DNA from: an uncultured Rhodospirillaceae bacterium
Lineage (GTDB): Bacteria; Pseudomonadota; Alphaproteobacteria; UBA7887
Length of the DNA stretch: 27,908 bases
Direction: 5' to 3'
Assembly: GCA_964408735.1 (NCBI GenBank)
Contig: CAYPAX010000063.1
Location: 1-27,908 of the forward strand
The translations under genes and the position numbers were made by a program. Below are positions 1 to 22,756 of the stretch, piece by piece. Under the pieces are notes generated by a model that did not search any database, was not told the DNA's origin, and saw only the letters and a program-made list of their open reading frames with translations. The first letter of the stretch is position 1, and every line of letters starts with the position of its first letter.

Positions 1-252
1 CACGGGGATCACATCGCCCGGTTCATAGCGTCCGGCATCGAGCCAGAGCTGCCAGTCCGATTGGTTGTCCGCGACTTCGAATCTGTCATCCAGGCTCGCG
101 ACCCGATGCGTGCCAGAATCTAGCTCATCGACCGCTGTGGTGAGATCTTCATATTCCTCGACGACAGCCAGCGACTGACCCGCAGGCAGCCACAGCGCCA
201 AGCCCAATATTGCCAGGGCCAGCGGCCGCGCGCCTAGAGCAGGGCCACGCAT
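1..252 (-). CDS. Partial CDS (N-terminus only; continues past the window start): hypothetical secreted protein with a predicted signal peptide (MRGPALGARPLALAILGLALWLPAGQS...)
   Basis: Minus-strand ATG at 252 opens a reading frame that runs off the window edge. It has a hydrophobic signal-peptide-like N-terminus and G/C-rich third codon positions. It does not appear in the ORF track because it has no stop inside the window. Confidence 0.35.
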   Translation of the reverse strand, partial: MRGPALGARPLALAILGLALWLPAGQSLAVVEEYEDLTTAVDELDSGTHRVASLDDRFEVADNQSDWQLWLDAGRYEPGDVIPV

Positions 253-644
253 TTCCTCAGGCCATCGGCCTCGGCGCCGGCGTAGGCTTGCAGCTCTTCG
301 TCGGTGCTTTCGCCTGCCCCGCCAAGCGAAAATGCGACGCCGCCGCTGCTGCCCTTGAGCGGCTGGGTGGCGCCGATGCTCGCGCGGCCGAACTGGGCGC
401 GGGTGATATCGTGCTCGGGGACGGTGAGGCGGCACAGCACCACCACCTCGTCGCCTTCGCGGCGGCGCTCGGCGAACTCGACCTGCCAGCCGTCGCCGTA
501 GCGGTCGTTGAGAAAGCGCTCCGGCTCGGAAACCTCCGCTTCGCGGCTTGCCGCGCGCGCTACCGGCTGAGGCCCGCCGGCCAGGGCATCGAGTTCGCGG
601 CGCGCCTCATCAAGCATCGTATCGAAAGGCGAGTCGGCGGTCAT
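234..644 (-). CDS. Standalone small protein (~136 aa) carrying the recurrent ~90-aa domain that also forms the N-terminal extensions of both HyuB proteins; possible Rad52/Rad22-like fold
   Basis: Its ATG at 644-642 overlaps the upstream hydrolase stop at 643-641 (ATGA coupling). The motifs RYGDGWQVEF...VVVLCRLTV...G and ADGLRKCVALL are clearly paralogous to residues ~65-135 of the HyuB at 7642 (FGDAWTFEV...VTVLCKLIV...DDALIKCAALFG) and residues ~10-80 of the HyuB at 24862. Confidence 0.6.
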   Translation of the reverse strand: MTADSPFDTMLDEARRELDALAGGPQPVARAASREAEVSEPERFLNDRYGDGWQVEFAERRREGDEVVVLCRLTVPEHDITRAQFGRASIGATQPLKGSSGGVAFSLGGAGESTDEELQAYAGAEADGLRKCVALL

Positions 645-1345
645 GGGGCGCTCGCACTCTGATTCCACCACTGGCGGAAATCTGCCTGCACACGGTCTGC
701 GGTAGCCGTGGCGAGGCCGCGCAGCGCGGCCAGCACCTCGCCGCTTGGCACCACGTCGCCGTATTTGGCGTCGATGTCGAACAGGTTGGCCTGGTGTGGC
801 CCCTCGGCACGGTCGCCCACCGCGTCCTCCACCACCACGGTGAGATAGCCGTTTTGCAGCGAGTCGATGGCGGAAGCGCGGATGCAGCCGCTCGTGGTGC
901 AGCCAGCCATGACGATTGTGTCGACCGCCAGCGCCTGCAGTCGCGCCTGCAGGTCGGTGCCGAAAAAGGCACTGGCATATTTCTTCTCCAGCACCGGCTC
1001 ACCGAATTGCGGTGGTATGCGCGCGTCGACCTCGACCATGGCCGAACCCTTGACCAGGATCGACAGGGCAGGGACCTTCTTGATGAAAACGCCCGCGTCG
1101 CGGTAGTGGGGCTCGTAGGCGACCGTGGTGTAGAAGATCGGCAGCTGTTCGCGGCGAAACGCCTCCAAAAGCTGGGCCGTGACTGCAAGCTCCTTGGCGA
1201 AATCGCCACCCAGCCCTGTTGTCGGATCGGTGAAGCCATTGATGAAATCGACCACCAGCAGGGCAGGGCTCTTGCCGAAGCCCGAGCGGTCGGCGAAGCC
1301 CTTGCGCCGGTATTCGGCAAAGGTATCGGTCTGCGATTTATCCAT
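641..1345 (-). CDS. Isochorismatase-family cysteine hydrolase (N-carbamoylsarcosine-amidase / RutB-like)
   Basis: It has the LLVVDFINGF motif and the catalytic-Cys region MAGCTTSGCIRASAID typical of the isochorismatase/CSHase family. The preferred start is the second ATG (MDKSQ, minus coordinate 1345), with a GGAGG 5 nt upstream. The ORF-track start at 1357 would make that GGAGG part of the coding sequence. Confidence 0.85.
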   Translation of the reverse strand: MDKSQTDTFAEYRRKGFADRSGFGKSPALLVVDFINGFTDPTTGLGGDFAKELAVTAQLLEAFRREQLPIFYTTVAYEPHYRDAGVFIKKVPALSILVKGSAMVEVDARIPPQFGEPVLEKKYASAFFGTDLQARLQALAVDTIVMAGCTTSGCIRASAIDSLQNGYLTVVVEDAVGDRAEGPHQANLFDIDAKYGDVVPSGEVLAALRGLATATADRVQADFRQWWNQSASAP

Positions 1346-1477
1346 GCGCACCTCCATGCCTGGTACAGACGATACTCCTTGCGCATTGGCGCATCAATCT
1401 GCAGCCCCGCTTGATCGCGGCGGGTGGCGGCGCTATCAACGATGGTCGGGGAAACGCATTGGCTGCGGAGGCGGGTT

Positions 1478-2515
1478 ATGGGCGACGATAAGGGCGGCAT
1501 TTCCGGGCGCGCGACGCGCGCGGCAGGCATCGGGCCGAGCTACCGGCCGCAATCCCTGCTTGGCGCGCCAAGCGGTCTTTCGGCCTCGGTCTCGCGCCAC
1601 TCGCTGGCGACGGGCGCCGGCAAGAAGGAGATCCTCTGCGCCTTCGGCATCGATGTGGACGCGGTCGCCGGCTGGCTCGGTTCATACGGCGGCGAGGATT
1701 CGCCCTGCGACATCTCGCGCGGGCTGTTCTCGGGCGAAGTCGGCACGCCGCGCCTGGTGCGCCTGTTCGACAAGCTCGGCATCAAGACCACCTGGTTCAT
1801 CCCCGGCCACTCCATCGAGACCTTCCCGGAGCAATGCCGCCTGGTGGTCGATGCTGGCCACGAGATCGGCATGCACGGCTATTCCCACGAGAACCCCATT
1901 GCCATGACGCCCGAGCAGGAAGAGCGGGTGATGGACAAGTGCATCGAGCTTATCGAGAAGCTCTGCGGGCGCCGGCCTACCGGTTACGTGGCGCCGTGGT
2001 GGGAGTTCAGCCCGGTCAGCAACGAGCTGCTGCTGAAGAAGGGCATCAAGTACGACCACAGCCTGATGAACGATGATTTTCACCCCTTCTATGTGCGGGT
2101 CGGCGACAGCTGGACACCGATCGACTATTCCAAGCACCCGGACGAGTGGATGAAGCCGCTGGTGCGTGGCAGCGAGACCGAACTCGTGGACATTCCCGGC
2201 TCCTGGTATCTCGACGACCTGCCGCCGATGATGTTCATCAAGTCGGCCCCAAACAGCTTCGGTTTCGTCAATCCGCGCGACATCGAGGAGCTTTGGCGCG
2301 ACCAGTTCGACTGGGTCTACCGCGAATACGACTACGCCGTCTTCACCTTCACCATCCATCCCGACGTCTCCGGCCGGCCGCAGGTGCTGCTGATGCTCGA
2401 GCGCTTGTATGAGTACATCGCCAGCCACGCCGGGGTGCGCTTCACCACCTTCGACGATATTGCCGACGACTTCCTGGCGCGCTTCCCGAAGCCCCAGGCC
2501 AAGGCGGCGGAGTAG
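1478..2515 (+). CDS. Polysaccharide deacetylase / NodB-homology metal-dependent deacetylase (PuuE-allantoinase-like)
   Basis: Motifs [20 protein letters not shown] and [10 protein letters not shown] are typical of NodB/PuuE-type deacetylases. The start was chosen at the ATG at 1478, which has GGAGG 6 nt upstream. The ORF-track start at 1424 would add a low-complexity leader. Confidence 0.8.
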
Positions 2516-2519
2516 GCGT

Positions 2520-2828
2520 GTGTGCAGCCTCTGCGGCGTGCTCGGCGGCCGCGGCCATTGGACCGACAGCAGCGCCGCGCCCGAAGCCTTCCAAGGCCGC
2601 GCGGTAACGCGGCGGGCCGAGCGCCAGGCGCGTGCGCGGCTGGTCAACAGGGTGTTGGCCCATTACGGGCTGGTGCTGTCGGACTGGTCGGGCAGCGGCT
2701 ACATGCTCAAGACACGCACCGGGCGCACGGCCATGGTCGAAAACCTCAGCGAGGTCTGGGCCGCCGCCGAGACCCTGCTGGGCCGGCCCTGCGATCCCCT
2801 CGACCCGGCCCTGCTGGCTTCCCTTTGA
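2520..2828 (+). CDS. Small hypothetical protein (~102 aa) with an N-terminal CxxC..H motif, translationally coupled to the downstream COG0523 GTPase
   Basis: A GTG at 2520 has GGAG 7 nt upstream. The frame shows very strong GC3 bias. Its stop TGA at 2826-2828 lies 1 nt before the ATG of the next gene (TGATATG). The N-terminus reads MCSLCGVLGGRGHWTD. Confidence 0.45.
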   Translation: MCSLCGVLGGRGHWTDSSAAPEAFQGRAVTRRAERQARARLVNRVLAHYGLVLSDWSGSGYMLKTRTGRTAMVENLSEVWAAAETLLGRPCDPLDPALLASL

Positions 2829-2829
2829 T

Positions 2830-3813
2830 ATGGGCGCCTACGGCGAGCTGATCCCTGTCGATGTCGTCACGGGTTTTCTCGGCAGTGGCAAGACCACCTT
2901 GTTGCAACGCCTGCTGCGCGCGCCGGGCCTGCGCGACGTCGCGGTGCTGGTCAACGAGTTCGGCGAGGTCGGCCTCGACCACCACCTCATCGAGAGCGCC
3001 GAGGAGAGCACGCTGCTGCTCGACAACGGCTGTCTCTGCTGCGCCATGCGCGGCGACCTCAAGGACTCCCTGCGGGAGCTGTTTTCGCGGCGCGAGCGGG
3101 GCGAGATCCCGGCCTTCGCCCGCGTCGTTATCGAGACCTCTGGCTTGGCCGACCCGGTGCCTATCGCCTACACGGTGCTGGTCGAGCCTGTGATCCAGCA
3201 TCACTTCCGCCTCGGCGCCGTCATCGCCGTGGTCGATGCGGTGAACGGGGCCGAGCAGCTGCGACGCTTCCCGGAATCGGTCAAGCAGGCAGCGACGGCC
3301 GACCGGATCGTGCTGAGCAAGCTTGATTTGGCGGAGGATGTCTCAAGCCTGCGCGCGGCGCTGCGCGGCATCAACGCCGCGGCACCGATCCTGGCGATCG
3401 ACGAAGCGGACGAAAGCCTGCTCTCTGTCGCCGACACCCGCCGAGAGCTGTCAGAGCTGGAAGAGACAAGCGCCGACCACAGCCATGGCATCAGCTCCTT
3501 CAGCCTGATCGTGGACCGCCCGCTCGACTGGACCGCCTTCGGCATCTGGCTGTCCATGCTGCTGGCCTGCCACGGCGAGCGTGTGCTGCGCGTCAAGGGC
3601 ATGCTCAATGTCGTGGGCGTGGCCGAGCCGGTGCTGATCAACGGCGTCCAACACATCGTCCATCCGCCGACCCATCTCGGTGGCTGGCCCGACGCCGACA
3701 GGCGTTCGCGCATCGTCTTCATTACCCACGAGCTGTCCGAGACGGAGCTCCGCTCTTCGCTTGATGCCTTCAATACGTTGGGAGAGCGAATACTGGCACC
3801 GGCGGGCGGCTAG
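2830..3813 (+). CDS. CobW/COG0523 (G3E family) P-loop GTPase, putative zinc/metal chaperone
   Basis: The Walker A motif GFLGSGKTTLLQRLL sits near the N-terminus, followed by the CxCC motif (GCLCCAM) and a CobW-type C-terminal domain. The true start is the ATG at 2830 (MGAYGELIPVDVVTGFLGSGKTT). The upstream part of ORF 2632..3813 is a different gene in another frame. Confidence 0.85.
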   Translation: MGAYGELIPVDVVTGFLGSGKTTLLQRLLRAPGLRDVAVLVNEFGEVGLDHHLIESAEESTLLLDNGCLCCAMRGDLKDSLRELFSRRERGEIPAFARVVIETSGLADPVPIAYTVLVEPVIQHHFRLGAVIAVVDAVNGAEQLRRFPESVKQAATADRIVLSKLDLAEDVSSLRAALRGINAAAPILAIDEADESLLSVADTRRELSELEETSADHSHGISSFSLIVDRPLDWTAFGIWLSMLLACHGERVLRVKGMLNVVGVAEPVLINGVQHIVHPPTHLGGWPDADRRSRIVFITHELSETELRSSLDAFNTLGERILAPAGG

Positions 3814-3913: not shown

Positions 3914-3970
3914 ATTTACACTTCTGTGTATTTTCTTGTTGGCAAATTACACATAAGTGTGTATTTATCG
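3914..3970 (+). promoter_or_regulatory. Putative hicAB promoter/operator region containing two palindromic sites
   Basis: TTGGCA (3939-3944), a 17-nt spacer, then TATTTA (3962-3967). Palindrome TACAC-TTCT-GTGTA lies at 3917-3930. Palindrome TACACA-TAAG-TGTGTA lies at 3948-3963, between the -35 and -10 elements. The region is AT-rich relative to its surroundings. Confidence 0.4.
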
Positions 3971-3996
3971 GTCAACAGAGAGCGAACGAGGGCGCC

Positions 3997-4179
3997 ATGC
4001 GTTCCAGAGAACTTTTCCGTAAGCTTCGCAGAGCCGGCTGCGACATAGAGCCCCGCAAAGGCGGCCACCACCTGGTCACGCGCGGCAAGCGCCGCATCAT
4101 CGTGCCCTATCACGGCACCAAGGAGATCGGAAAGGGCCTGCTGGAGAAGATCAAAAGGACCCTCGACGTGGATCTGTGA
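3997..4179 (+). CDS. hicA: HicA-family mRNA-interferase toxin (type II TA)
   Basis: A 60-aa protein reading MRSRELFRKLRRAGCDIEPRKGGHHLVTRGKRRIIVPYHGTKEIGKGLLEKI, matching the HicA/YcfA signature. GAGGG lies 5 nt upstream of the ATG at 3997. Confidence 0.85.
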   Translation: MRSRELFRKLRRAGCDIEPRKGGHHLVTRGKRRIIVPYHGTKEIGKGLLEKIKRTLDVDL

Positions 4180-4189
4180 CAATGCATAT

Positions 4190-4243
4190 GAACCGCAACC
4201 GAACCGAAACCGCAAACCGCAACCGAAACAGAAACCGCACCCA
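4190..4243. repeat. Degenerate tandem (A)AACCG(C) microsatellite-like repeat (~8 units) in the hicA-hicB spacer
   Basis: Seen directly in the sequence: gaaccgcaaccgaaccgaaaccgcaaaccgcaaccgaaacagaaaccgcaccc. Confidence 0.6.
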
Positions 4244-4254
4244 AAGGTCCCACC

Positions 4255-4698
4255 ATGCTCGAATATCCCGTGTCCATGGAGAGCGACACTAACGATACCG
4301 TCCTGCTTCAGTTCCTCGACTTCCCCGAGGCCGTCGCCATCGGCGACGATGAAGACGACGCCCTCGCCAACGCCATCGAAATCCTGGAGATCGCCATAGC
4401 CGAAAAAATCGCCCGCCGGGAGGCCATCCCGGCCCCGTCCAAGGCCCGCAACAACCCGACCGTCACTCTCCCAACCCAGGTGGCGGTCAAGGTGCTGCTC
4501 TACCAGACCATGCGCGACGAGAAGGTTCGCAAGGCAGAGCTGGCGAGGCGCCTGCACACCCGCCCCAACACGGTGGAACGCCTGCTCGACCTGAGACACG
4601 CCAGCCGCATGGACCAGCTCGACGCGGCTTTCGCCAGCCTCGGCAAGCGCCTGGTGGTTCAGCTCTCGGGCGCCTCCGCGCGCCGAACCACCGGCTGA
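4255..4698 (+). CDS. hicB: HicB-family antitoxin with a C-terminal DNA-binding (HTH/RHH-like) region
   Basis: It lies immediately downstream of hicA. The N-terminal HicB-like fold reads YPVSMESDTNDTVLLQFLDFPEAVAIGDDEDDALANAIEILEIAIAEKIARREAIPAPS. The C-terminal part (ELARRLHTRPNTVERLLD) looks like a DNA-binding module. Confidence 0.8.
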   Translation: MLEYPVSMESDTNDTVLLQFLDFPEAVAIGDDEDDALANAIEILEIAIAEKIARREAIPAPSKARNNPTVTLPTQVAVKVLLYQTMRDEKVRKAELARRLHTRPNTVERLLDLRHASRMDQLDAAFASLGKRLVVQLSGASARRTTG

Positions 4699-4880
4699 GA
4701 GGCAGGCCCGAGCGCCAGGCTCTCGGCCGCCACCTCGGCCTCGAACAGCAGGCGCCGGTGGCGCTTCGCATCGGGCGAGGCGGGATCGGCCGCGATCAGG
4801 CGCCGCAGCGTTGCCGCCCTGGCATTGGCGCGCTTGATCCATTCTGACAGCACATCGTGTTGCGTGATAAAGGTCGGCAT
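4659..4880 (-). CDS. Possible small hypothetical protein (73 aa), convergent with hicB and overlapping its 3' end
   Basis: The ORF has high GC3 and an ATG at 4880, but only a weak, distant RBS. No recognisable motifs. Confidence 0.25.
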   Translation of the reverse strand: MPTFITQHDVLSEWIKRANARAATLRRLIAADPASPDAKRHRRLLFEAEVAAESLALGPASQPVVRRAEAPES

Positions 4881-4912
4881 TGATGCGCTGCCCGCCTCCG
4901 GCCGCCAATCTC

Positions 4913-5428
4913 TTAACGCGCCGCACCCCGTCCCGGCGGGCGCTTGGGGCGCCAGCCCGTGCGGAAGGCGCGCACCACGTGGTGCAGCAGGTAGAAGGCC
5001 AGCGTCAAAATCACCAGCAGCACGATGGTGACCAGGCGCGAGCCGAAGGCCGGGTCGAAGATGGCGCCGTTGCCGATCAGGTGCTCGCTGAGCATGACGA
5101 TGGCCTGCAAGGTGGCGCCGGCACAGAAGATCACCGCTATCAGGATGGCGATCTGCAGGGTGTCGAAGACCAGTTCCTCGGGCTCCAGCTCAGCGACAGG
5201 GCGGAAGAACTTGGCGCGGAAAGTCTGCCAATGGGCGATCGTGTAGCCCACCACGCCGACCAGGGATGCAAACCAGAAAATCAGGTTGTCCGAGCGGATA
5301 TGGGTCAGGCCCTCGACCACGAAGGCTTCGAACGGTTGGTAATAGTAGAGGAAAATCAACAGGATCACGAGGGCCACGACAGTGACCCAAACGCGCGTAA
5401 TCAGGGGATTGGCGGAGCTTTCTTCCAT
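4913..5428 (-). CDS. Small integral membrane protein (~4 TM), unknown family; paralogous to the ORF at 19730..20194
   Basis: It has hydrophobic segments and shares the motif LIFLYYYQPFE with LIFLYFYQPFE in the paralog. It is divergent from hyuA. Confidence 0.7.
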   Translation of the reverse strand: MEESSANPLITRVWVTVVALVILLIFLYYYQPFEAFVVEGLTHIRSDNLIFWFASLVGVVGYTIAHWQTFRAKFFRPVAELEPEELVFDTLQIAILIAVIFCAGATLQAIVMLSEHLIGNGAIFDPAFGSRLVTIVLLVILTLAFYLLHHVVRAFRTGWRPKRPPGRGAAR

Positions 5429-5487: not shown

Positions 5488-5516
5488 TTGACCCACCGGG
5501 CCGCGGGCGCGATCAT
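5488..5516 (+). promoter_or_regulatory. Candidate sigma70-like promoter for hyuA (TTGACC-N17-GATCAT)
   Basis: A hexamer pair with 17-nt spacing lies in the divergent intergenic region ~55 nt upstream of the hyuA ATG. Confidence 0.25.
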
Positions 5517-5572
5517 TGGCCATCGCCGCAAGGCGAGGGTGGGACACGGCGTTGCGAGTGGGGAAGAACAGC

Positions 5573-7645
5573 ATGGCCAGCAGGCTTGGCATTGATGTCG
5601 GGGGCACTTTCACTGACCTCTTGCTGTTCGACGACGACAGCGGCGAGATCCATCTCGCCAAGACCCCGTCGACGCCTGCCGACCAATCGGTGGGAATCCT
5701 CACCGGCATAGAAAAGATCGTGACGGAGACTGGTGTCGCGCCCTCCGCCATCCGCGGGCTTCTGCACGGCACCACCGTATCGACCAATATCGTGCTCGAG
5801 GAGAAGGGCGCACGCGTCGGGCTCATCGTCACCGAGAATTTCGAGCAGGTGCTGCATATGGCGCGTTCGCAGACGCCGGGGCCGCTGGCGGGCTGGATGA
5901 TCATGATCAAGCCCGACCCCCTGGCCGATCTCGAGCTCACCCGCGGCGTGCCCGAGCGTCTGGATTCCCGCGGCAACGTGCTGACCCCGCTCGACGAGGC
6001 CCGCACCCGCGACGCCATAGCCGAGCTCATCGACGGCGGCGCGGAATCCATCACCGTCTCCCTCCTGCATTCCTACGCCAACCCGGTGCATGAGCAGCGC
6101 GTGCGCGATCTCGTGCACGAGGTCGAGGCCGATCTGCCGGTCTCTCTGTCGTCGGAAATCCTGCCCGAGTTCCGCGAATACGAGCGCGCCCTGGTGGCCG
6201 TGATGAACGCCTATGTGCGCCCCAGCATGCGCCGTTACCTGAGCAGCTTCGTCGATAAGCTCAGCGGCATCCAGTTCTCGCCGCATGTCAACATCATCCG
6301 CTCCGATGGCGGCCTGATGAGTGTCGACAGGGCCTCGGAATCACCGGTCCACACCATGTTGTCGGGGCCTGCCGGCGGTGTCTCGGGGGCGGCGTTCGTG
6401 GCCGGGCTTGCCGGCTTTCCCGATGCCCTCGGCTTCGACATGGGCGGCACCTCGACCGATGTCTCGCTGATCCGCGACGGTAAGCCGACTATCTCGCGCC
6501 AGACTTCGCTCGGTTACTACCCCATCAAGATTCCCTCGGTGGAGGTGCACAGCGTCGGCGCCGGCGGCGGCTCCATCGCCCATGTGCCGATGACCGGCGC
6601 GTTGCGCGTCGGCCCCGAGAGCGCCGGCGCCGATCCCGGGCCCGCCTGCTACGGCAAGGGCGGCGATCAGCCCACCGTGACCGACGCCAACGTGGTGCTG
6701 GGGCGCCTGCCGCCCGCTCTCCTAGGTGGCGAGATGGCGCTCGATGTGAAAGCGGCGGAGGAGGCGGTGGACAAGATCGGCCGCGCCATCGGCCTCGACA
6801 CCCACCAGGCGGCACAGGGCATTCTCGACATCGTCAACGAGAACATGTTCGGTGCGCTCAGGCTGCTGACGGTGCAGAAGGGGCTCGACCCGCGCGACTT
6901 TGCGCTCGTCGCCTTCGGTGGTGCCGGGCCGCTGCACGCCAATGCCGTCGGCATGCTGGCCGGCTCGAGCCCGGTCATCGTGCCGCCTACACCTGGCGTG
7001 CTTTCGGCCCTCGGATTTCTCTATTCCGACGTCAAGAACGAGTTCGCCCAGACCTTCATCCGCAATATCGGCGGTATCGAGTCCGGCGAGGTCAGCGAGA
7101 TTCTCGCCCGCCTCGGCAACGAAGCCCGCAACTGGCTGCGCGAGGAAGGCATCGAGGAGCGCCGCCAGGGCCTCAGCTTCGAGGTCGACGTGCGCTATTT
7201 CCGCCAGGGTTACGAATTCTCCCTCGATGTCGATCCCGAGCGCCTCGGCAATGGCGGCATGGCCGATATTGCCGAGCGCTTCGGCGGCGCTCATGAGCGC
7301 CTCTACGGCTTCCGCCTCGAACAGCCGGTAGAGCTGGTCAATCTGCGGGCGGTCGGCACGGGGCAGGTGGTCAAGATCGAGTTTCCCGCCCACGAGCCCG
7401 TCGGCCCGGATGCCTCGGCCGCCGTGGTCGAGCAGCACCAGGTCTATTTCGACGGCAATTTCTACAGTGCCAACATATACGACCGCAGCCTTTTGCAGGC
7501 TGGCCATCGCGTCTCCGGCCCGGCGGTCGTGCTGCAGAAGGATTCGACCACAGTCATCCACCCCGGCCATGTCGGCGAGGTGGACAGCTATCTCAATATT
7601 CTCATTCGTCCCGAAGGGGCGGCCATGAAGGGTGCCGAAAGATGA
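5573..7645 (+). CDS. hyuA: Hydantoinase A / N-methylhydantoinase A / 5-oxoprolinase-family subunit A (ATP-hydrolysing)
   Basis: The N-terminus reads MASRLGIDVGGTFTDLLLFD, with full-length HyuA-type similarity (IRSDGGLMS, DMGGTSTDVS). The preferred start is the ATG at 5573, with GGGGAAG upstream. The stop overlaps the hyuB start (ATGA at 7642-7645). Confidence 0.9.
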   Translation: MASRLGIDVGGTFTDLLLFDDDSGEIHLAKTPSTPADQSVGILTGIEKIVTETGVAPSAIRGLLHGTTVSTNIVLEEKGARVGLIVTENFEQVLHMARSQTPGPLAGWMIMIKPDPLADLELTRGVPERLDSRGNVLTPLDEARTRDAIAELIDGGAESITVSLLHSYANPVHEQRVRDLVHEVEADLPVSLSSEILPEFREYERALVAVMNAYVRPSMRRYLSSFVDKLSGIQFSPHVNIIRSDGGLMSVDRASESPVHTMLSGPAGGVSGAAFVAGLAGFPDALGFDMGGTSTDVSLIRDGKPTISRQTSLGYYPIKIPSVEVHSVGAGGGSIAHVPMTGALRVGPESAGADPGPACYGKGGDQPTVTDANVVLGRLPPALLGGEMALDVKAAEEAVDKIGRAIGLDTHQAAQGILDIVNENMFGALRLLTVQKGLDPRDFALVAFGGAGPLHANAVGMLAGSSPVIVPPTPGVLSALGFLYSDVKNEFAQTFIRNIGGIESGEVSEILARLGNEARNWLREEGIEERRQGLSFEVDVRYFRQGYEFSLDVDPERLGNGGMADIAERFGGAHERLYGFRLEQPVELVNLRAVGTGQVVKIEFPAHEPVGPDASAAVVEQHQVYFDGNFYSANIYDRSLLQAGHRVSGPAVVLQKDSTTVIHPGHVGEVDSYLNILIRPEGAAMKGAER

Positions 7646-9909
7646 CGGAGTCCGCGCAACGCCGCTCGATCTCCCTCGATGATCTGCTCAAGAGCAGCAA
7701 GGAGCAGTTCGATACGATCTTCGCCAGCCAGATGCGCGAGATCGGCCTGGTTGCCGCCGAGCGCCGTCCGCCCACCGCTGAGGATATCGCCTCCGCCAGC
7801 ATGCCCGCCGGCAATGGTGAGGCCGATGTCGGCGACCGGCTCAACGCCCAGTTCGGCGATGCCTGGACCTTCGAGGTGGTCGAGCACAAGAGCGAGCGCG
7901 GCTCGGTGACGGTGCTTTGCAAGCTCATCGTCAATGGCGCGTCGAAAATGCAGTTCGGCGCCGCGCGCATCAACGGCGATCCGGGTGCGGCGCTGCAGCG
8001 GGCGACGGATGATGCGCTGATCAAATGCGCCGCGCTGTTCGGCGAAGCGATGGAAGCCCCGCCACAGCAGGCGAAGCCGACCAGCACACCGGTATCGATG
8101 CCCGCGCGCCCGGCTGCCGCGCCCGGCAATCGCGGCCTCGACACCATCACCCTCGATCTCATCGAGAACGCGCTGCGCAATGCGCGCCACGAAATGGATG
8201 CAGTACTATTCCGCTCCGCCATGTCGCCGGTGATCCGCGAGCAGCACGACGAGTTCCCCATGATCACCGACGCCAAGGGGCGCATGATCGTCGGCCAGTT
8301 CGGCTCCTACGTCTCGGAGATGCTGCGCGAGCAGAACATGGACCTGCATCCCGGCGATATCATTTTGCAAAGCGATCCCTACAAGTGCGGCGGCGCCATC
8401 AGCCACATCAACGACTGGATGGTGCTAGTGCCGATCTTCCACGAGGGCGAAGTGGTCGGCTTCAGCTCCATGTTCGGCCACATGATGGATGTCGGCGGGC
8501 CGGTACCCGGCAGCATGCCGACGGCGGCCAGCTCGGTGTTCGGCGAAGGCATCAAGATTCCACCTCTCAAGGTCTACGAGAAGGGCGAGCCCAACAAAGC
8601 CGTGCTCGACCTCTTGATGAACAACACCCGCACCCCGGAGATGAACTACAGCGACCTGATGGCGATCATCGCCGGCAGCCGCGCCGGCGAGCGCCGGGTC
8701 ATCGAGATTTGCGACCGCTTCGGCCGCGAGACCTACAAGCAGGCTTGCGAAGCGTTGCTGGAACGCACCAACCGCGCCATGCGTCAGCTCATCGTGCAGA
8801 ACCTGCCCGAAGAGCCGCAATCTTTCGAGGACTACGTGGACGACGACGGCCTCGGCAACGGCCCCTTCAAGATGAAGCTCACGGTCTGGCGCGAGGGCGA
8901 GCACGCCTATTTCGATTGGACCGGCACGTCCGAGCAGGCGCCGGGGCCGATCAACTTCTATCTCCACGACGGCATGTTCAAGATGTTCATCGGCGTTTAC
9001 ATGATCATGGTCTTCGACCCGCAGATCCTCTTCAACGACGGCTTCTACGACCTCATCCATGTGACCCTGCCCAAGGGCTCGCTGGTGCATCCCAATTTCC
9101 CGGCCGCTCTGGGCTGCCGTACACACGCCCTGGCGCGCCAGTTCGACGTGCTCGGCGGCGCGCTCAGCAAGAAGGCGCCGGAGATGGCCACCGCCGCCGG
9201 CTATGGCTCCAGCCCGCACTTCCTCTATTCGGGCGTCGACGGGGAAGGCCAACCTTTCCAGCTCATGGAAATTCTCTATGGCGGCATTCCCGGTCGCCCC
9301 ATCGGCGACGGCATGGATGGCCATTCCTGGTGGCCGCTGTTCGAGAACATTCCTGCCGAGTATCTGGAGAGCTACTACCCGATGCTAATAGATGGCTATA
9401 CCACCATCGCCGACAGCGGCGGCGCCGGCCTCCATCGTGGCGGTAACGGTGTCGAGAAGATCTATCTGCTGCGGTCGGAGGGCGAAATATCAATCCATGA
9501 CGACAGGCACTTGACACAGCCCTGGGGTATCCTCGGCGGCAGGCCGGGGGCGTGTTCGGAAAAGTGGCTGCTGCGTGCCGACGGCTCGCGTGAGGCGCTG
9601 CCGTCCAAGATCGACAACGTCAAGGTCCGCGACGGCGACCGCGTCATCTTCCGCACCGCCGGTGGTGGCGGTTGGGGGAACCCGCTGGAGCGGGAGCCCC
9701 AGCAAGTGCGTGCCGATGTCGCGCGGCGGCTGGTCAGTCGCGAGGCCGCGCGCGAAAATTACGGCGTCGTGCTCAGCGCGGACGGTAGCAGCCTGGATAG
9801 TGCTGCCACCCGCGATTTGCGTGAGAGCATGAAGCGTGGCCGCAAGGAGGCGCCGGTGTTCGATTTCGGCGAGCGGCCATCGGCCAACGCCGCTGCGCGA
9901 ACGAGCTGA
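7642..9909 (+). CDS. hyuB: Hydantoinase B / oxoprolinase-family subunit B with a ~160-aa N-terminal extension (recurrent Rad52-like domain plus Pro-rich linker)
   Basis: The HyuB core starts around ITLDLIENALRNARHEMD and continues with typical HyuB blocks (DWMVLVPIFHEGEVVGF, GGGWGNPLEREP). The N-terminal ~160 aa are absent from canonical ~580-aa HyuB proteins. Confidence 0.9.
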   Translation: MTESAQRRSISLDDLLKSSKEQFDTIFASQMREIGLVAAERRPPTAEDIASASMPAGNGEADVGDRLNAQFGDAWTFEVVEHKSERGSVTVLCKLIVNGASKMQFGAARINGDPGAALQRATDDALIKCAALFGEAMEAPPQQAKPTSTPVSMPARPAAAPGNRGLDTITLDLIENALRNARHEMDAVLFRSAMSPVIREQHDEFPMITDAKGRMIVGQFGSYVSEMLREQNMDLHPGDIILQSDPYKCGGAISHINDWMVLVPIFHEGEVVGFSSMFGHMMDVGGPVPGSMPTAASSVFGEGIKIPPLKVYEKGEPNKAVLDLLMNNTRTPEMNYSDLMAIIAGSRAGERRVIEICDRFGRETYKQACEALLERTNRAMRQLIVQNLPEEPQSFEDYVDDDGLGNGPFKMKLTVWREGEHAYFDWTGTSEQAPGPINFYLHDGMFKMFIGVYMIMVFDPQILFNDGFYDLIHVTLPKGSLVHPNFPAALGCRTHALARQFDVLGGALSKKAPEMATAAGYGSSPHFLYSGVDGEGQPFQLMEILYGGIPGRPIGDGMDGHSWWPLFENIPAEYLESYYPMLIDGYTTIADSGGAGLHRGGNGVEKIYLLRSEGEISIHDDRHLTQPWGILGGRPGACSEKWLLRADGSREALPSKIDNVKVRDGDRVIFRTAGGGGWGNPLEREPQQVRADVARRLVSREAARENYGVVLSADGSSLDSAATRDLRESMKRGRKEAPVFDFGERPSANAAARTS

Positions 9910-9957: not shown

Positions 9958-12750
9958 ATGCTTGAGCTAGGCGTCACGATCTTCATCATCGCGGTGGTCG
10001 TCATCGCGATCGTCTACATCATCTCGATCTGGATCTACAAGAGGGCGCCCGCCAATATGGGCTTCATCCGGACGGGCTTCCTCGGCACCAAGGTGTGTGT
10101 CGGGCAGGGCGCGGTGGTGCTGCCGGTGTTCCACGAGATCACCTGGGTATCGCTTGAGACTATCAAGCTTATCGTCAGCCGCGCGCGCGACCAGGCGGTA
10201 CTGACCTCGGACAAGATCCGTGTCGATGTCATCGTCGAGCTCTATGCCCATGTCGGGCGCACCGAGGACGACGTGCTGGTCGCCAGCCGCAGCCTCGGCG
10301 ACAAGACCTTCGATCCCGATCGCGTGCGCAGTCTGCTCGAAGCCAAGATCGTTAGCGCCTTGCGCAGCCATGCCGCAACGAAGACCTTGAGCGAGCTGCA
10401 CGAGAACCGCGAGGATTTCGCCAAGGCGATCAAGGGAAGCGCCATCGAGAGCTTCCAGGCCAATGGCCTGACGCTTGAAGAAGCGACCATCGTTACCCTG
10501 GAGCAGGCCGGCAAGGAATATTTCAAGACCGACAATATCTTCGATGCCGAAGGCCTGAAGATCATCACCGCGGTCACCTCCGACGCCAAGCGCAAGGTGC
10601 ACGAGACGGAGAAGCGGACCACGGTCGCCATCCGCCAGAAGGACCTCGACACCCAGCTCGAGCTGTTGGAGATCGAACGCAAGGAGGCTTTCGCCCGGGC
10701 CGGCCAGGACAAGGACGTCTCAAACGAGCAGGCGCTGCAGCTTGGACAGAAGCAGGTCTATGTGCTCGACCAGCGCATGTCGGTCGAGCAGCGCGAGATC
10801 GAGAACGAGAAAGAGCTCGAACGCATGCGCACCGAGCGCGACGTGGCCGTCACGGAAGAGGCGCAGAAACGCCAGACCAGCGAAATCCGTATGGAGCGGG
10901 CGCTGGAGGCCGAGCGCCGTGAGAAGGAGATCGCGCTCATCGCCAAGGCCAAGGAAGAGGAGCTTGCCGACGTCGAGCGCAAGCTGGAATTGGAAAAGGC
11001 CGAGCGCGACCGCCAGATTGCGCTGATCGCCAAGGCCGAGCAGGAGGAGCTTGCCGATATCGGTCGCGACCTGGCCCGCCAGCAGGCCGAGAAAGACCGC
11101 GAGATCGAGATGCTGTTCAAGGAGCAGGAGCGGCAACGCGCAGACATTCAGCGCATCACGGCGGTTACGGCAGAGGAGGAGGCGGCGCGCAAGGCCCGCC
11201 ACGCCGCGGCCGAGGACGCCGCTCTCGACATGCGCAAACGCAGCCTGGAAACGCGGCTCGCGGTTCTCGATATCGACAAGGACGAGGCGGTCGCCACTAC
11301 CCAGCAGGAGCGCGAGGTCTCGGACGAGAAGGCCCGGGTGCTGGCCGAGAAGCAACGCTTCATCATCGAGCAGCGCTGGGCCGTGCAGCAGGAGGAGATC
11401 ACCAAGGAGGAGGCGCTTGAGAGGGCGCGCATCGCCAAGGAGACGGCCGTCATCGAAGAGTCGAAGCAGCGCGAGGCCGCCGAAGTTCGCCGTGCGCTCG
11501 CCCGCGAGCAGGAAGAGCGCGACCGTGAGATAGCGCTTGTCGGCAAGGCCGAGGAACTGGAAGCGGCGAAACGCGACCGCGAGATTGCCTTGGTCGCCAA
11601 GGACGAGGCTTTGCGCATCGCCGAGGAGCGTCAGGCCAAGGCCGTCGCCCTTGAGGAGCGCGAGCGCGAGATTGCCATCATTCAGAAGGAGCAGGAACGC
11701 GAGAAGGCTGACATCCAGCGCTTTCTGGCCCGCGAGCAGGAGGAGCGCGACCGCGAGATCGCTCTGGTGCGCAAGACCCGCGAGCTGGAGAGCGCCGAGG
11801 TCGAGCGCCTGGCGACCACGGCGGAGAAGGAGCGCGCCGAACATGAGGTCGAGTCCGTGCGCGTGGTCGCCGACGAAGAGCGCGCAAAGGTTATCGAGGT
11901 GCTGGCGGCGGAAAAGCTTGCCGAGGCCCAGCGTGTCGAGGAGGAGGCCAAGGCGCAAATCTCCAGCATGCACATGCTTAGTCAATCCACGGCGCGTAAG
12001 GAAGCGGCGGCGGAGGAGGCCGAGGCCATTCTTGCCCGGGCCCGCGCCAATAGCGAGGCGCAGCAGATCGGTGCGCTGGGCATCGAGCGCGAGGCCGGCG
12101 CGGCAGGCCGGGCCGAGATGGAGATCGAAGCGCTCAGGGCGGAGAATGCCCGCCGCATGCTGGAAGCCGAGGCCGGCGGCATCGAGGCCAAGGCCGATGC
12201 CCTGAAGAAGTACAACGACGCGGCCACCTTCCTCGAGCTGGCCAAGCTGCATATCGAGGCCGAGCGCGACATCCATATCGACCAGGCCAAGGCCATGGGC
12301 AACGCCCTGCAGAACGCCCAGATCCGCATGTATGGCGGCGGCGGTGGCGACGACGGCACCATCGATACCCTGCGCGGCCTGTTCACCCGCGGCTTCGGTC
12401 TCGGCGAGGTGCTGGAGGGCGTTGCCCAGTCGCTGCCGGAAGGCCTGCGCGAGCGCTTCGCCGCCAACGGCATTCGCGGCCTTTTCGGCCGGCCCTATCC
12501 GGGTGGCTCGCTGACCCAGGCCTACGCCCAGCTGGAAGTGCTGGTGGGCAAGGCCATGCGGTCGAAGAAAGCCCGCGAGATCCCGGTCGCAGAAGCCATG
12601 CCCAAGCTGGTCGAGGCGGCGGGCGAGGACGAGGCGGGGCTGGCCGCGGTGGCCATGTTGCGCGAATTCAACCAGCAGGGCGCTTTCGACGACGTGGCCT
12701 TCGAGACCGTATGGTCCTTGTTGCAGGCCGCGGCCGCCAAGCTCGATTGA
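9958..12750 (+). CDS. Flotillin-family / SPFH (band-7) membrane protein (YqiK-like) with a greatly expanded coiled-coil repeat region (930 aa)
   Basis: An N-terminal TM helix is followed by an SPFH core (YKRAPANMGFIRTGFLGTKVCVGQGAVVLPVFHEITWVSLETIKL...SELHENREDF) and then ~600 aa of E/R/A/K-rich heptad repeats (REIALIAKA..EELA repeated). Confidence 0.85.
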   Translation: MLELGVTIFIIAVVVIAIVYIISIWIYKRAPANMGFIRTGFLGTKVCVGQGAVVLPVFHEITWVSLETIKLIVSRARDQAVLTSDKIRVDVIVELYAHVGRTEDDVLVASRSLGDKTFDPDRVRSLLEAKIVSALRSHAATKTLSELHENREDFAKAIKGSAIESFQANGLTLEEATIVTLEQAGKEYFKTDNIFDAEGLKIITAVTSDAKRKVHETEKRTTVAIRQKDLDTQLELLEIERKEAFARAGQDKDVSNEQALQLGQKQVYVLDQRMSVEQREIENEKELERMRTERDVAVTEEAQKRQTSEIRMERALEAERREKEIALIAKAKEEELADVERKLELEKAERDRQIALIAKAEQEELADIGRDLARQQAEKDREIEMLFKEQERQRADIQRITAVTAEEEAARKARHAAAEDAALDMRKRSLETRLAVLDIDKDEAVATTQQEREVSDEKARVLAEKQRFIIEQRWAVQQEEITKEEALERARIAKETAVIEESKQREAAEVRRALAREQEERDREIALVGKAEELEAAKRDREIALVAKDEALRIAEERQAKAVALEEREREIAIIQKEQEREKADIQRFLAREQEERDREIALVRKTRELESAEVERLATTAEKERAEHEVESVRVVADEERAKVIEVLAAEKLAEAQRVEEEAKAQISSMHMLSQSTARKEAAAEEAEAILARARANSEAQQIGALGIEREAGAAGRAEMEIEALRAENARRMLEAEAGGIEAKADALKKYNDAATFLELAKLHIEAERDIHIDQAKAMGNALQNAQIRMYGGGGGDDGTIDTLRGLFTRGFGLGEVLEGVAQSLPEGLRERFAANGIRGLFGRPYPGGSLTQAYAQLEVLVGKAMRSKKAREIPVAEAMPKLVEAAGEDEAGLAAVAMLREFNQQGAFDDVAFETVWSLLQAAAAKLD

Positions 12751-12757
12751 GTCCGGC

Positions 12758-13849
12758 GTGGCCGACTACGACGTCGTCCTGGAGCATGTCGACAAGACGT
12801 TCGACGGTTCCGTTCGCGCTGTCATCGACTTCAATGCCGAGATCAAGCGCGGCGAGTTCGTTGCCATGCTCGGCCCCTCGGGCTGCGGCAAGACCACGAC
12901 GCTGCGCATGATCGGCGGCCTGGAAGAGGTCACCTCGGGGCGGATTTTCATCGCCGGAAAGGACGTCACCGACCTGCCGCCGTCTCACCGCGACACCTCG
13001 ATGATGTTCCAGAGCTTCGCGCTGTTTCCCCATCGCACGGTCTTCCAGAACGTGGAATTCAGCCTCAAGATGCAGGGTCGCAGCCGCGACGAGCGCGCCA
13101 AGCCGGTCTGGGACATGCTGGAGATGGTCGGCCTGGCGGAGCTTGCTTCCCGCCGCCCGCACGACCTTTCAGGCGGTCAGCAGCAGCGCGTGGCCCTGGC
13201 GCGGGCGCTGATCAGCGGCCCCACAGTGCTGCTGTTGGATGAGCCGCTGGGCTCGCTCGACTACAACCTGCGCCAGTCGATGATCGTCGAGCTGAAGAAA
13301 ATTCAGCGCGAGCTCAACCTGACCTTCATCATGGTCACCCATTCCCAGGAAGAGGCCATGTCCATGGCCGACAAGGTCATCGTGATGAGCGACGCACTGA
13401 TCCAGCAGACCGGCACCTCGCGCCAGATCTATGAGACCCCGCGTACCCGCTTCGTCGCCGAGTTCATCGGCAACAACAACATCTTCGCCGGCACCATCCG
13501 CTCGCAAAGCGGCTCGGTGGTCTTCGTCGAGGCGGGCGAGGCGCTCTATTACGTGCCGGTGCCCGAGCACATGCGCCGCGTCGCGGTCGGCAGCGAGGTC
13601 TCCTTTTCGGTGCGCGCCGATGTCATGCATACGGGCGAGCATCCCGACATGGCCAACCGGGTCGAGGGCCGCTACATCGCCACCGAGTTCAAAGGCTCGC
13701 TGGAGACCGACGTCTTCGAGCTCGAACCCGGTCACTTCGTCCATGTCGAGCAGCACCGCAGCGCCTCCGACCGCATCTACGACATGGGCGAGCGCGAGAC
13801 CATCTGCTGGTCCTCCGAGGTTGGCGTCCTGCTCGATCAGATCGGCTGA
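12758..13849 (+). CDS. ABC transporter ATP-binding protein, PotA-like (spermidine/putrescine-type importer ATPase)
   Basis: Walker A GPSGCGKTT, signature LSGGQQQRVALARAL, Walker B LLLDEPLGSLD, and a C-terminal TOBE-like domain. GTG start lies 7 nt after the flotillin stop. Confidence 0.85.
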   Translation: MADYDVVLEHVDKTFDGSVRAVIDFNAEIKRGEFVAMLGPSGCGKTTTLRMIGGLEEVTSGRIFIAGKDVTDLPPSHRDTSMMFQSFALFPHRTVFQNVEFSLKMQGRSRDERAKPVWDMLEMVGLAELASRRPHDLSGGQQQRVALARALISGPTVLLLDEPLGSLDYNLRQSMIVELKKIQRELNLTFIMVTHSQEEAMSMADKVIVMSDALIQQTGTSRQIYETPRTRFVAEFIGNNNIFAGTIRSQSGSVVFVEAGEALYYVPVPEHMRRVAVGSEVSFSVRADVMHTGEHPDMANRVEGRYIATEFKGSLETDVFELEPGHFVHVEQHRSASDRIYDMGERETICWSSEVGVLLDQIG

Positions 13850-13852
13850 CGC

Positions 13853-14680
13853 TCAGCGCATTCGGCGATAAAGAATGCTGTAGATGGCCAGGAACAGGCC
13901 GATCATGCAGAGCGAAAACAGCGTCGAGGCAGTGCCGAGCGCGAACAGGGTCGGGCGGATGCGCTGGGTCATCGAGGCGTTGATGTCGAGCGGGAGGGTG
14001 TTGAACTCGCCGGCCAGCAAGGTGGTGCGGGCGAATTCGTCATAGGACAGGGTGAAGCCGAACAGGCCCGCCGCCACCACGCCGGGGATGATCAGCGGCA
14101 AAGTGATCTCCTTGAACACCGTCCATTCGTCGGCACCCATATCGCGGGCCGCCTCCTCCAGGCTTTCGTCGAAACGGTTGAACACCGCCATCATCACCAG
14201 GAAGCCGAAGGGCAGGGTCCAGACCACGTGCACGCCGAGCGCCGAGGAGTACCAGGCAGGCGGAATGCCGATCTGCTTGAGCAGCGTTGCAAGGCCCAGG
14301 CTGAGCAGGATGCCGGGCACCATCAGCCCCGCCAGCACGGTATAGAACAGCAGCCCCGAGCCCCGGAATTTCTTGCGGAAGGCCATCGCCAGCATGGTCG
14401 AGAACAGCGCCGTCAGCACCATCACGATCAGCGCCAGTATCAGCGACCGCCCCATGGCACCCTGCAGGTCGCCCACCGTAGAAGGCTCGATGAGCTTCTT
14501 CCACCAATGCAGGCTGACGCCTCGCATAGGGAAGCTGGTGCCGCCGCGCTCGCCCTGGAAGGAGAGGATGAACATGGCGATCATGGGGCCGTAGATGAAC
14601 ACCAGGAAGATGCCGTAATAGGCGCTGAACCCGGTCTTGATCCAGGCCTTGCGGCGTCGGTCTGGCGTCCAGCGGGCCAT
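13853..14680 (-). CDS. ABC transporter permease, PotC-like
   Basis: A 6-TM permease with an EAA-like loop (EEAARDMGADEWTVFKEITLP). Its start abuts the upstream permease stop. Confidence 0.85.
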   Translation of the reverse strand: MARWTPDRRRKAWIKTGFSAYYGIFLVFIYGPMIAMFILSFQGERGGTSFPMRGVSLHWWKKLIEPSTVGDLQGAMGRSLILALIVMVLTALFSTMLAMAFRKKFRGSGLLFYTVLAGLMVPGILLSLGLATLLKQIGIPPAWYSSALGVHVVWTLPFGFLVMMAVFNRFDESLEEAARDMGADEWTVFKEITLPLIIPGVVAAGLFGFTLSYDEFARTTLLAGEFNTLPLDINASMTQRIRPTLFALGTASTLFSLCMIGLFLAIYSILYRRMR

Positions 14681-22746: not shown

Positions 22747-22756
22747 CGGCGTCGGA

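Follow-up and report, generated by a model that had tools for sequence, protein, structure and literature searches.

What is the small protein that is encoded beside an isochorismatase-family hydrolase gene on a contig from an uncultured Rhodospirillaceae bacterium? The contig (CAYPAX010000063.1) is 27,908 nucleotides long, and by the window we mean this whole stretch of DNA. The gene lies at 234-644 on the minus strand and its product has 136 amino acids and an isoelectric point (pI) of 4.6. The original prediction described it as a standalone copy of a domain that is also fused to the N termini of two hydantoinase-type subunits, HyuB1 and HyuB2, in the same window. It did not recognize what the domain is. 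In our analysis, the domain comes out as a divergent member of the Rad52/Rad22 superfamily, and this identity is the main point of interest. For the product of 234-644, the assignment is made through predicted similarity of fold and a transitive sequence link. The features with which Rad52 binds DNA have been lost.

We consider first whether the three segments are related. By BLASTP, the standalone protein is similar to the N terminus of HyuB1 (E = 2e-10), the N termini of HyuB1 and HyuB2 are similar to each other (E = 2e-10), and the standalone protein is similar to the N terminus of HyuB2 (E = 6e-4). We also searched all 286 six-frame segments of the window with a profile of free-standing proteins, in which the standalone open reading frame (ORF) was the sole sequence from the window. 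This profile matched the ORF itself (1e-41), the HyuB1 N terminus (6e-22), and the HyuB2 N terminus (9e-9), and the next best segment was at 0.26. Another profile, made solely of HyuB1-type domains, recovered the HyuB2 copy at 3e-11 and the standalone ORF at 1e-13, and the next best segment reached only 0.17. Since these searches match the three segments and nothing further, the domain occurs exactly three times in the window. Judging from their sequences, the three copies are homologous. The prediction that the standalone ORF and both HyuB N termini share a domain, for which profile searches had been named as the test, is thus supported by significant BLASTP matches and by two profiles.

For genomic context, we used the window, 19 fetched loci (designated L001 and so on), and one locus with gene calls only. 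No fourth copy of the domain was found on the other proteins of the window and 16 of the loci, nor any further copy of the N-terminal helix motif that is described below. Where both hyuAB pairs lie within the stretch (the window, L004, L005, L011, and L012), there are three copies, or one per enzyme unit.

ORF 234-644 is a real, conserved protein-coding gene. It runs from an ATG at 644-642 to a stop codon at 236-234. Twenty full-length homologues (133-182 amino acids), all of them unnamed or "hypothetical", came from a word-indexed search. An exhaustive profile search gave 568 clusters (at 50% identity) with E ≤ 1e-3, including 171 with E ≤ 1e-10, and the majority of the 568 are free-standing proteins of 130-200 amino acids. 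The homologues have a common start position, and in clean assemblies we saw no disruption of the frame. Relative to the orthologue from L006, which is 73% identical, there are 23, 20, and 38 differences at the first, second, and third codon positions. All of this agrees with the original prediction that the ORF is translated. The relatives that have a name are all from uncultured Alphaproteobacteria. In species-representative genomes the search found only seven loci, all in bins of uncultured Alphaproteobacteria or Rhodospirillaceae.

The free-standing protein has an N-terminal helix, a Pro/Ala-rich linker, and a core with the order alpha-beta-beta-beta-(hairpin)-alpha. The amphipathic N-terminal helix (residues 6-22, or 579-629 on the minus strand) is seen in the alignments and in the structure model, and its consensus is SSxFDxMLxxNRxxFDxL. 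The free-standing proteins have this motif in common with the N terminus of HyuB1, and HyuB2 lacks it. Across the window and 16 loci, a hidden Markov model of the motif matches only the N termini of free-standing and HyuB1-type proteins. The linker (residues 23-39, or 528-578 on the minus strand) varies in length, aligns as gappy columns, and is modelled with low confidence: the predicted local distance difference test (pLDDT) is below 50 for residues 23-37. The Rad52-fold core, as delimited by the model and the alignments, spans residues 40-136 (237-527 on the minus strand). In the model it is made up of a helix (40-49), three strands (54-63, 66-75, and 80-89), an inserted hairpin (96-107), and a last helix (113-135). 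The consensus of the core is RxLNxRFGxGWRxE..ERRREGDEVxVLCKL...SKTQFGRA...GSAxGVxF...AAxxxAxxxALAxC..L.

Three positions stand out. W53, A124, and C132 are invariant in an alignment of 42 sequences (A3). In an alignment of 124 sequences (A5), strict invariance holds for A124 alone, with W53 and C132 conserved to 90% or more. C132 is part of a stripe on the last helix (A124-A128-C132-L136). From the helical periodicity, this stripe presumably faces the sheet, and the near-invariant cysteine is probably a buried packing residue. The domain is also acidic. The pI is 4.56 for the product of 234-644, 4.71 for its core, 4.79 for the HyuB1 module, 5.24 for the HyuB2 domain, and 4.6-5.9 in most members of the family.

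Direct scans of ORF 234-644 gave no match to Pfam or NCBIfam and no significant match to a PHROG family. A PHROG scan of all three copies gave nothing significant either; the best match, at E = 2.8e-4, was between the HyuB1 copy and a family of unknown function. A structure model from the 124 sequences has a mean pLDDT of 78.9, with 89-93 for the blocks of the core, and it contains the expected core fold: a three-stranded sheet on a long C-terminal helix, with another helix before it. The topology and the four top structural matches (with scores of 8.8, 7.8, 7.7, and 7.5) are unchanged from another model. The ribosomal protein uS5 and double-stranded RNA-binding domains (dsRBDs) score at most 7.4, which is below every structural match to the Rad52 family. 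The uS5 N-terminal domain and the dsRBD have the order alpha-beta-beta-beta-alpha; they align over fewer residues and have no sequence-profile support. The domain studied here has an acidic surface. None of the dsRBD families in Pfam was matched in scans of the window's proteins, the HyuB1-type domains, and the free-standing members.

The sequence evidence comes from orthologues of HyuB1. The Pfam family for Rad52 and Rad22 (PF04098, Rad52_Rad22, with a curated cut-off of 20.3 bits) matches the HyuB1 orthologue from L002 (27.7 bits, E = 2.9e-6) and the P0032 HyuB1 orthologue (23.3 bits, E = 6.5e-5). The precomputed Pfam labels of HyuB1 orthologues had already listed "Rad52_Rad22 (weak)". Among 14 isolated HyuB1-type domains, nine match PF04098 (best E = 6.3e-7), and no other family recurs. 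So, HyuB1 orthologues reach PF04098, and the profile of free-standing proteins matches the N terminus of the window's HyuB1 at 6e-22, which links the free-standing protein to Rad52 transitively.

Several results weigh against this assignment. The link for ORF 234-644 is only transitive, by way of the HyuB1 copies, plus structural. Neither ORF 234-644 nor either of the window's HyuB N termini matches PF04098 at E ≤ 1, and just 3 of the 42 free-standing members touch it (best E = 0.13). Family profiles that were searched against the sequences in the PDB found no Rad52 chain. (These searches did match Pumilio repeats and designed armadillo-repeat proteins, which we rejected as spurious.) Using hhalign, the family profiles aligned with low probability to a single sequence of human RAD52. 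One of these alignments fell on the expected FG..GW region, and we do not count it as support.

If the domain is a Rad52 relative, then how does it differ from Rad52? We mapped a sequence of human RAD52, whose numbering reproduces the known functional residues, onto the family by eye. In the human protein, single-stranded DNA is bound by a beta-hairpin and a basic groove with R55, Y65, K152, R153, and R156. On this by-eye map, what the domain shares with RAD52 are positions of the core: the FG..GW motif, the glycine before the loop, and the alanine and leucine of the last helix. In contrast, the family lacks the beta1-beta2 hairpin on which R55 and Y65 of RAD52 are located, and ahead of the core there is instead a disordered linker (pLDDT below 50). 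With a consensus of DALAxCAxxL, the last helix does not conserve the equivalents of K152 and R156 by the same map. Many family members do have a lysine at the mapped position of R153, and a conserved basic turn, ERRRE, is at the mapped position of the K102 loop. C132 of the family corresponds, on this map, to an alanine in RAD52. The helices of RAD52 beyond residue 160 are absent, and the extra hairpin before the last helix is a feature of the free-standing form and not of Rad52.

More broadly, the domain is much shorter than the known Rad52/Rad22 proteins (human RAD52, yeast Rad52, Mgm101, and phage Sak/DUF1071), is acidic, and lacks the basic groove for single-stranded DNA. The context differs as well. 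Proteins of the Rad52 family are found with recombination genes, in phages or eukaryotes, and phage Sak/DUF1071 belongs to a phage recombination module. The domain studied here is found with amide-hydrolysing enzymes on an alphaproteobacterial chromosome, and the neighbours of ORF 234-644 are hydrolases, HyuAB, CobW, an ABC transporter, and an SPFH protein. This metabolic context, which is neither phage nor recombination, counts against a role with DNA, as do the acidic pI and the missing hairpin. A genuine single-strand-annealing or DNA-repair protein (similar to DdrA or Sak) that lies near metabolic genes by chance would account for the Rad52-family fold and the Pfam link, but we think this very improbable: the protein is acidic and lacks the DNA-binding hairpin and groove residues, it has no phage or recombination neighbours and no significant PHROG match (the best was the 2.8e-4 above), the metabolic synteny is conserved over diverged genomes, and the domain has been fused to HyuB twice.

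The two fused copies, which are tethered to B subunits of ATP-dependent enzymes of the hydantoinase/oxoprolinase type, differ in their make-up. HyuB1 begins with a module (7642-8049, plus strand) in which the helix motif is followed by a linker and then by a Rad52-fold core at residues ~62-136 without the hairpin insertion. This module is joined by a Pro/Ala-rich linker (EAMEAPPQQAKPTSTPVSMPARPAAAPG; 8050-8142, plus strand) to the catalytic part (Hydantoinase_B, PF02538, E = 2.7e-148; 8143-9909, plus strand), and the Pfam match starts at residue 167. The best solved relative of HyuB1 is an N-methylhydantoinase (7hk5, E = 3.7e-76). HyuB2 begins directly with a Rad52-fold core, without the helix motif (residues 1 to ~80; 24623-24862, minus strand). 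A Pro-rich linker (TAVAPPPPLAEPQPEPAPTMPKMADPGKPLPPRP; 24485-24622, minus strand) leads to its catalytic part (PF02538, E = 1.1e-152; 22757-24484, minus strand), where the Pfam match starts at residue 127. Both HyuB proteins match PF02538 at full length (model positions 1-519). Among the four closest solved chains of the HyuB family, no such appended domain is present: they align from near their first residue or have unrelated N termini.

In the orthologues of HyuB2 from three loci, the domain is at the other end of the protein, behind a Pro/Ala-rich linker and within a single ORF. These are L001 (17317-19461), L011 (12932-15157), and L012 (~13094-15272), all on the plus strand, and their catalytic parts are 52-54% identical to that of the window's HyuB2. 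The domain has shifted between the N and C termini of the same enzyme. As it occurs at the C terminus, at the N terminus, and as a separate protein, the module evidently functions at both ends of the enzyme and by itself, always on or after a flexible stretch. The original prediction of an autonomous module finds its strongest new evidence in these C-terminal placements.

At first there seemed to be a second free-standing family: 47 proteins match the N terminus of HyuB1, and most of them have 100-230 amino acids. We read 20 of these sequences and inspected two loci, and we rejected them as independent genes. They are fragments of fused genes that arise from frameshifts or at contig ends, with out-of-frame tails and with pieces of HyuB called directly behind them. 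In L004 and L005, which are long-read contigs from ENA, the hyuA, hyuB, cobW, and flotillin-like genes are split by frameshifts. Frameshifts in assemblies of this type are the source of many of the short, seemingly free-standing proteins.

Another truncated gene is in L016. Its hyuB (12212-15345, plus strand) is cut by the end of the contig and begins with a weak match to the part of the family profile that covers the N-terminal helix and linker (E = 1.8e-4). L016 also has a distant member of the family as a free-standing gene with no adjoining isochorismatase, and its arrangement may be a more diverged form of the one described here.

The gene just upstream of the free-standing gene encodes an isochorismatase-family cysteine hydrolase (641-1357, minus strand; PF00857, E = 4.7e-33, 115 bits with a cut-off of 27). 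No NCBIfam equivalog was assigned to it at the cut-off. Its closest solved relatives are N-carbamoylsarcosine amidohydrolases (PDB 26st, 9.4e-65, and 1nba, 8.8e-34), so by sequence it resembles an N-carbamoylsarcosine amidase. All of its orthologues keep the motifs VVDF, KKYASAFF, and GCTTSGC, which by analogy with the rest of the family presumably hold the catalytic Asp, Lys, and Cys. The hydrolase also has a C-terminal extension, A.RA.DDFxRWW, which is present in 10 of 11 aligned sequences, all of them paired with the free-standing domain gene. In the window this tail is the last ~23 codons (641-712, minus strand) and lies beyond the region that aligns to the solved amidases. The DDFxRWW tail could be a docking element.

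The two genes are tightly linked. At 641-644 the window reads "tcat", or ATGA on the minus strand, and the start codon of the 136-residue ORF overlaps the TGA of the hydrolase gene, just as the original prediction had it. The same 4-nucleotide overlap is found in L017, and wherever the junction was read there is either a 4-nucleotide overlap or a gap of at most 10 nucleotides. The isochorismatase gene is directly upstream of the free-standing gene, on the same strand, in 15 of the 18 informative loci, which also answers whether standalone homologues elsewhere adjoin a cysteine-hydrolase gene. The exceptions are L001, L008, and L016.

The original prediction had further concluded that in all three cases translation of the domain comes straight after that of an amidohydrolase gene, as the stop codon of each hyuA overlaps the start of its hyuB. 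We do see the three ATGA overlaps, at 641-644, at 7642-7645 (HyuA1, 5516-7645, plus strand), and at 24859-24862 (HyuA2, 24859-26943, minus strand, where the overlap is read as 24862-24859). They are not a property of the domain, however. Where the domain is C-terminal, the hyuA junction stays with hyuB, and in the three exceptions above the free-standing gene does without an isochorismatase, so as a generalization about the domain this does not hold. Because HyuA is the partner subunit of HyuB, the overlaps between hyuA and hyuB are ordinary coupling of subunits.

The synteny of the surrounding cluster is conserved. Divergent from the hydrolase/domain pair is a gene for a polysaccharide-deacetylase-family protein (1424-2515, plus strand), with a match to DUF2334. 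Its closest solved relative is HP0310 from Helicobacter pylori (PDB 3qbu; E = 3.6e-150), and among the alphaproteobacterial loci its orthologues share 77-92% identity with it. This degree of conservation points to a particular enzymatic function that has yet to be recognized, and not to the deacetylation of peptidoglycan. The deacetylase-family protein is followed by a small conserved CxxC protein of ~102 amino acids that begins CSLCGVLGGRGHWT (2520-2828, plus strand; the start is approximate) and by a CobW-family GTPase of the COG0523 type (2632-3813, plus strand; PF02492, 3.3e-44, and PF07683, 2.5e-22). The CobW domain starts at residue 75 of the listed ORF, whose start is probably too far upstream. 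For the small protein, we rejected ORF 2522-2851 (plus strand) as an Arg/Pro-rich artefact in the wrong frame; the conserved gene shares its frame with ORF 2409-2828 and starts near 2520. These three genes are the most constant neighbours of the free-standing gene, and they are present also in L001, L008, and L016.

Directly after hyuB1 is a gene for a flotillin-like protein of 930 amino acids (9958-12750, plus strand), with an N-terminal transmembrane helix and an SPFH/Band_7 domain (PF01145, 2.9e-13). It has a very long, repetitive region that is rich in Glu, Arg, Ala, and Lys, which matches itself in tblastn and is probably a coiled coil. A flotillin-like gene (encoding 850-930 amino acids) directly follows hyuB1 in all eight loci that cover this position, and in the three loci whose sequence continues, the next gene encodes an ABC ATPase. 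In several loci, hyuA2 and hyuB2 come directly after the free-standing gene. Both soluble HyuAB pairs are flanked by membrane proteins. Upstream of hyuA1 is a conserved protein of 171 amino acids (4913-5428, minus strand) with about four hydrophobic, probably membrane-spanning segments, and a paralogue of it is encoded downstream of hyuB2 in L011 and L012. In the window, hyuB2 is followed by a gene for a polytopic membrane protein (21652-22797, minus strand). Read from its gene families, the cluster appears to be for the uptake and hydrolysis of nitrogen-rich cyclic amides.

What might a Rad52-like domain do in such a cluster? We tentatively propose, at somewhat less than an even chance, that it is a protein-protein assembly module that acts without DNA and brings the enzymes of a cyclic-amide pathway together. 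It would have lost the DNA-annealing role and would now, without being catalytic itself, mediate contacts between proteins. The Pro/Ala-rich linkers, the mobility between N and C termini, and the presence of one copy per enzyme unit all point to assembly. The pathway is suggested by the closest solved relatives, which are an N-methylhydantoinase for HyuB1 and N-carbamoylsarcosine amidohydrolases for the hydrolase. In the degradation of creatinine, the N-methylhydantoinase and the N-carbamoylsarcosine amidase carry out consecutive reactions. In the window, HyuAB would open a ring similar to N-methylhydantoin, and the isochorismatase-type N-carbamoyl-amino-acid amidase would then remove the carbamoyl group.

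Rad52-type cores characteristically pack side by side into filaments or into rings, which have about 7 to 19 subunits. By analogy, the free, HyuB1, and HyuB2 copies may bind one another or share a partner. The free copy, which is made along with the amidase by way of the ATGA-coupled junction, would be an adaptor that recruits the untagged amidase, possibly by way of the DDFxRWW tail and the N-terminal helix of the adaptor. That the amidase is coupled in this way is suggested by the adjacency in 15 of 18 loci and by the conserved extra C-terminal tail. The assembly could sit at the membrane, next to the importer and on a flotillin-like scaffold; we suggest the membrane because the cluster encodes the flotillin-like protein, other membrane proteins, and an ABC importer. 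Oligomerization, binding of the amidase, formation of a metabolon, and localization to the membrane are all steps that we infer. We think it rather unlikely that all of this holds at once, with a ring-forming Rad52 core, of a kind otherwise known only from proteins for DNA annealing and repair, co-opted in a group of Alphaproteobacteria as a scaffold that is independent of nucleic acids, and with one oligomer holding both HyuAB enzymes and the next amidase by the importer on a flotillin-like scaffold.

Some observations do not fit these proposals easily. The three loci that lack an adjoining isochorismatase have the free-standing gene nonetheless, and L015 has the hydrolase/domain pair with no hyuAB within 10 kb. 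The C-terminal helices that contribute to ring contacts in Rad52 are absent, and the domain does not necessarily form rings. And the conserved ERRRE turn and the lysine at the mapped R153 position mean that the domain may have kept some binding of nucleic acids.

The alternative that survives best is that the domain is a targeting tag, which docks the enzymes on the flotillin-like scaffold or on another membrane protein without the copies oligomerizing. The flotillin-like gene follows hyuB1 in every covered locus, the membrane proteins flank both hyuAB pairs, and the ABC importer is encoded alongside. Placement on a flexible linker at either terminus is typical of targeting peptides, and the domain is found at both. 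However, HyuB2 lacks the N-terminal helix motif of the free copy and of HyuB1. This alternative overlaps largely with assembly, so the two are hard to separate by computation, but as a distinct explanation we consider it unlikely.

It is less probable that the domain still binds nucleic acids, in the manner of a dsRBD or of Rad52, and either regulates (for instance) the mRNA of its own operon or ties the enzymes to RNA or DNA. The fold is common to Rad52-type annealing proteins and, at slightly lower Z scores, to dsRBDs and the uS5 N-terminal domain. The translational coupling of the gene within an operon would fit, as would the ERRRE turn and the lysine, with the reservation that both were placed on RAD52 by eye. 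But most members have a pI of 4.6-5.9, the R55/Y65 hairpin is absent, the equivalents of K152 and R156 are not conserved, and no dsRBD family in Pfam is matched. There is also no obvious regulatory logic in tethering such a domain by long linkers to two enzymes, at either end.

We likewise consider it improbable that the domain is an adaptor or client of a CobW-type metallochaperone system, with the conserved cysteine serving to load a metal into the deacetylase or HyuAB or to sense metal or redox state. This would explain why the genes for the deacetylase, the CxxC protein, and CobW are the most constant neighbours even without an isochorismatase. Cys132 is also found in all three classes of paralogues, at 90% or more in the 124 sequences, with alanine at the mapped position of RAD52. 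Against this, each domain has one cysteine and no cluster of His, Cys, or Asp, and the helical periodicity places Cys132 on the stripe that faces the sheet, where it is probably buried. The CobW neighbourhood is more simply explained if the deacetylase-family enzyme needs a metal.

To return to assembly, the arrangement resembles the tethered modules of other systems, such as the encapsulation peptides of bacterial microcompartments and the peripheral-subunit-binding domains of 2-oxoacid dehydrogenases. By analogy with these assembly and targeting modules, it is a small module on a Pro/Ala-rich linker that may be at either terminus and is also made as a separate small protein. Unlike those systems, it has no kinship to their modules in sequence or fold, and the cluster has no genes for a shell or for an E2 core. 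The enzymes of the creatinine pathway are the nearest solved relatives of the catalytic neighbours, and no free-standing partner protein for them is described in the literature that we searched.

In eukaryotes, mitochondria, and phages, the fold of the Rad52 core is taken as the hallmark of proteins that anneal single strands, and the papers that cite PF04098 concern phages or DNA repair. Full-text searches found no paper that links Rad52 with hydantoinase or oxoprolinase, or flotillin with hydantoinase, and searches for gene clusters of the creatinine pathway gave nothing relevant. So this is apparently a known fold superfamily with new architectures and in a new, non-DNA role, which is not described in the literature that we searched. 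If the proposal is correct, then this is a clear case of a DNA-repair fold being reused, in several hundred bacterial clusters and in free, N-terminal, and C-terminal forms on catabolic enzymes. If the domain is a generic small stabilizing fold instead, then the finding shrinks to the annotation of a new domain family. The 136-residue protein gives a small, expressible handle on a bare Rad52 core, with which its oligomerization, its partners, and any residual binding of nucleic acids could be studied.

The cluster itself, which appears to serve the use of nitrogen-rich cyclic amides, is well conserved and uncharacterized, and the Alphaproteobacteria that have it are uncultured ones from the sea and from soil. 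It comprises two HyuAB pairs, an enzyme similar to carbamoyl amidases, the deacetylase-family enzyme with its CobW chaperone, the flotillin-like protein, and the ABC importer. This organization suggests a physically organized pathway.

The remainder of the window encodes ABC permeases, a binding protein, an amidohydrolase, and an amidase. Between the CobW gene and hyuA1, ORF 4255-4698 (plus strand) has a weak match to HicB-like antitoxins (E = 4.2e-5, 24.1 bits, which is below the cut-off of 27) and overlaps a longer ORF on the minus strand (3916-4926). The amidase is listed at 20255-22093 (minus strand), and its match to PF01425 begins at residue 168, after an extension of 167 amino acids that is rich in Arg, Ala, and Pro and matches no family. 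Translation probably begins further downstream than the listed GTG, near the methionines in RMIDMDI.

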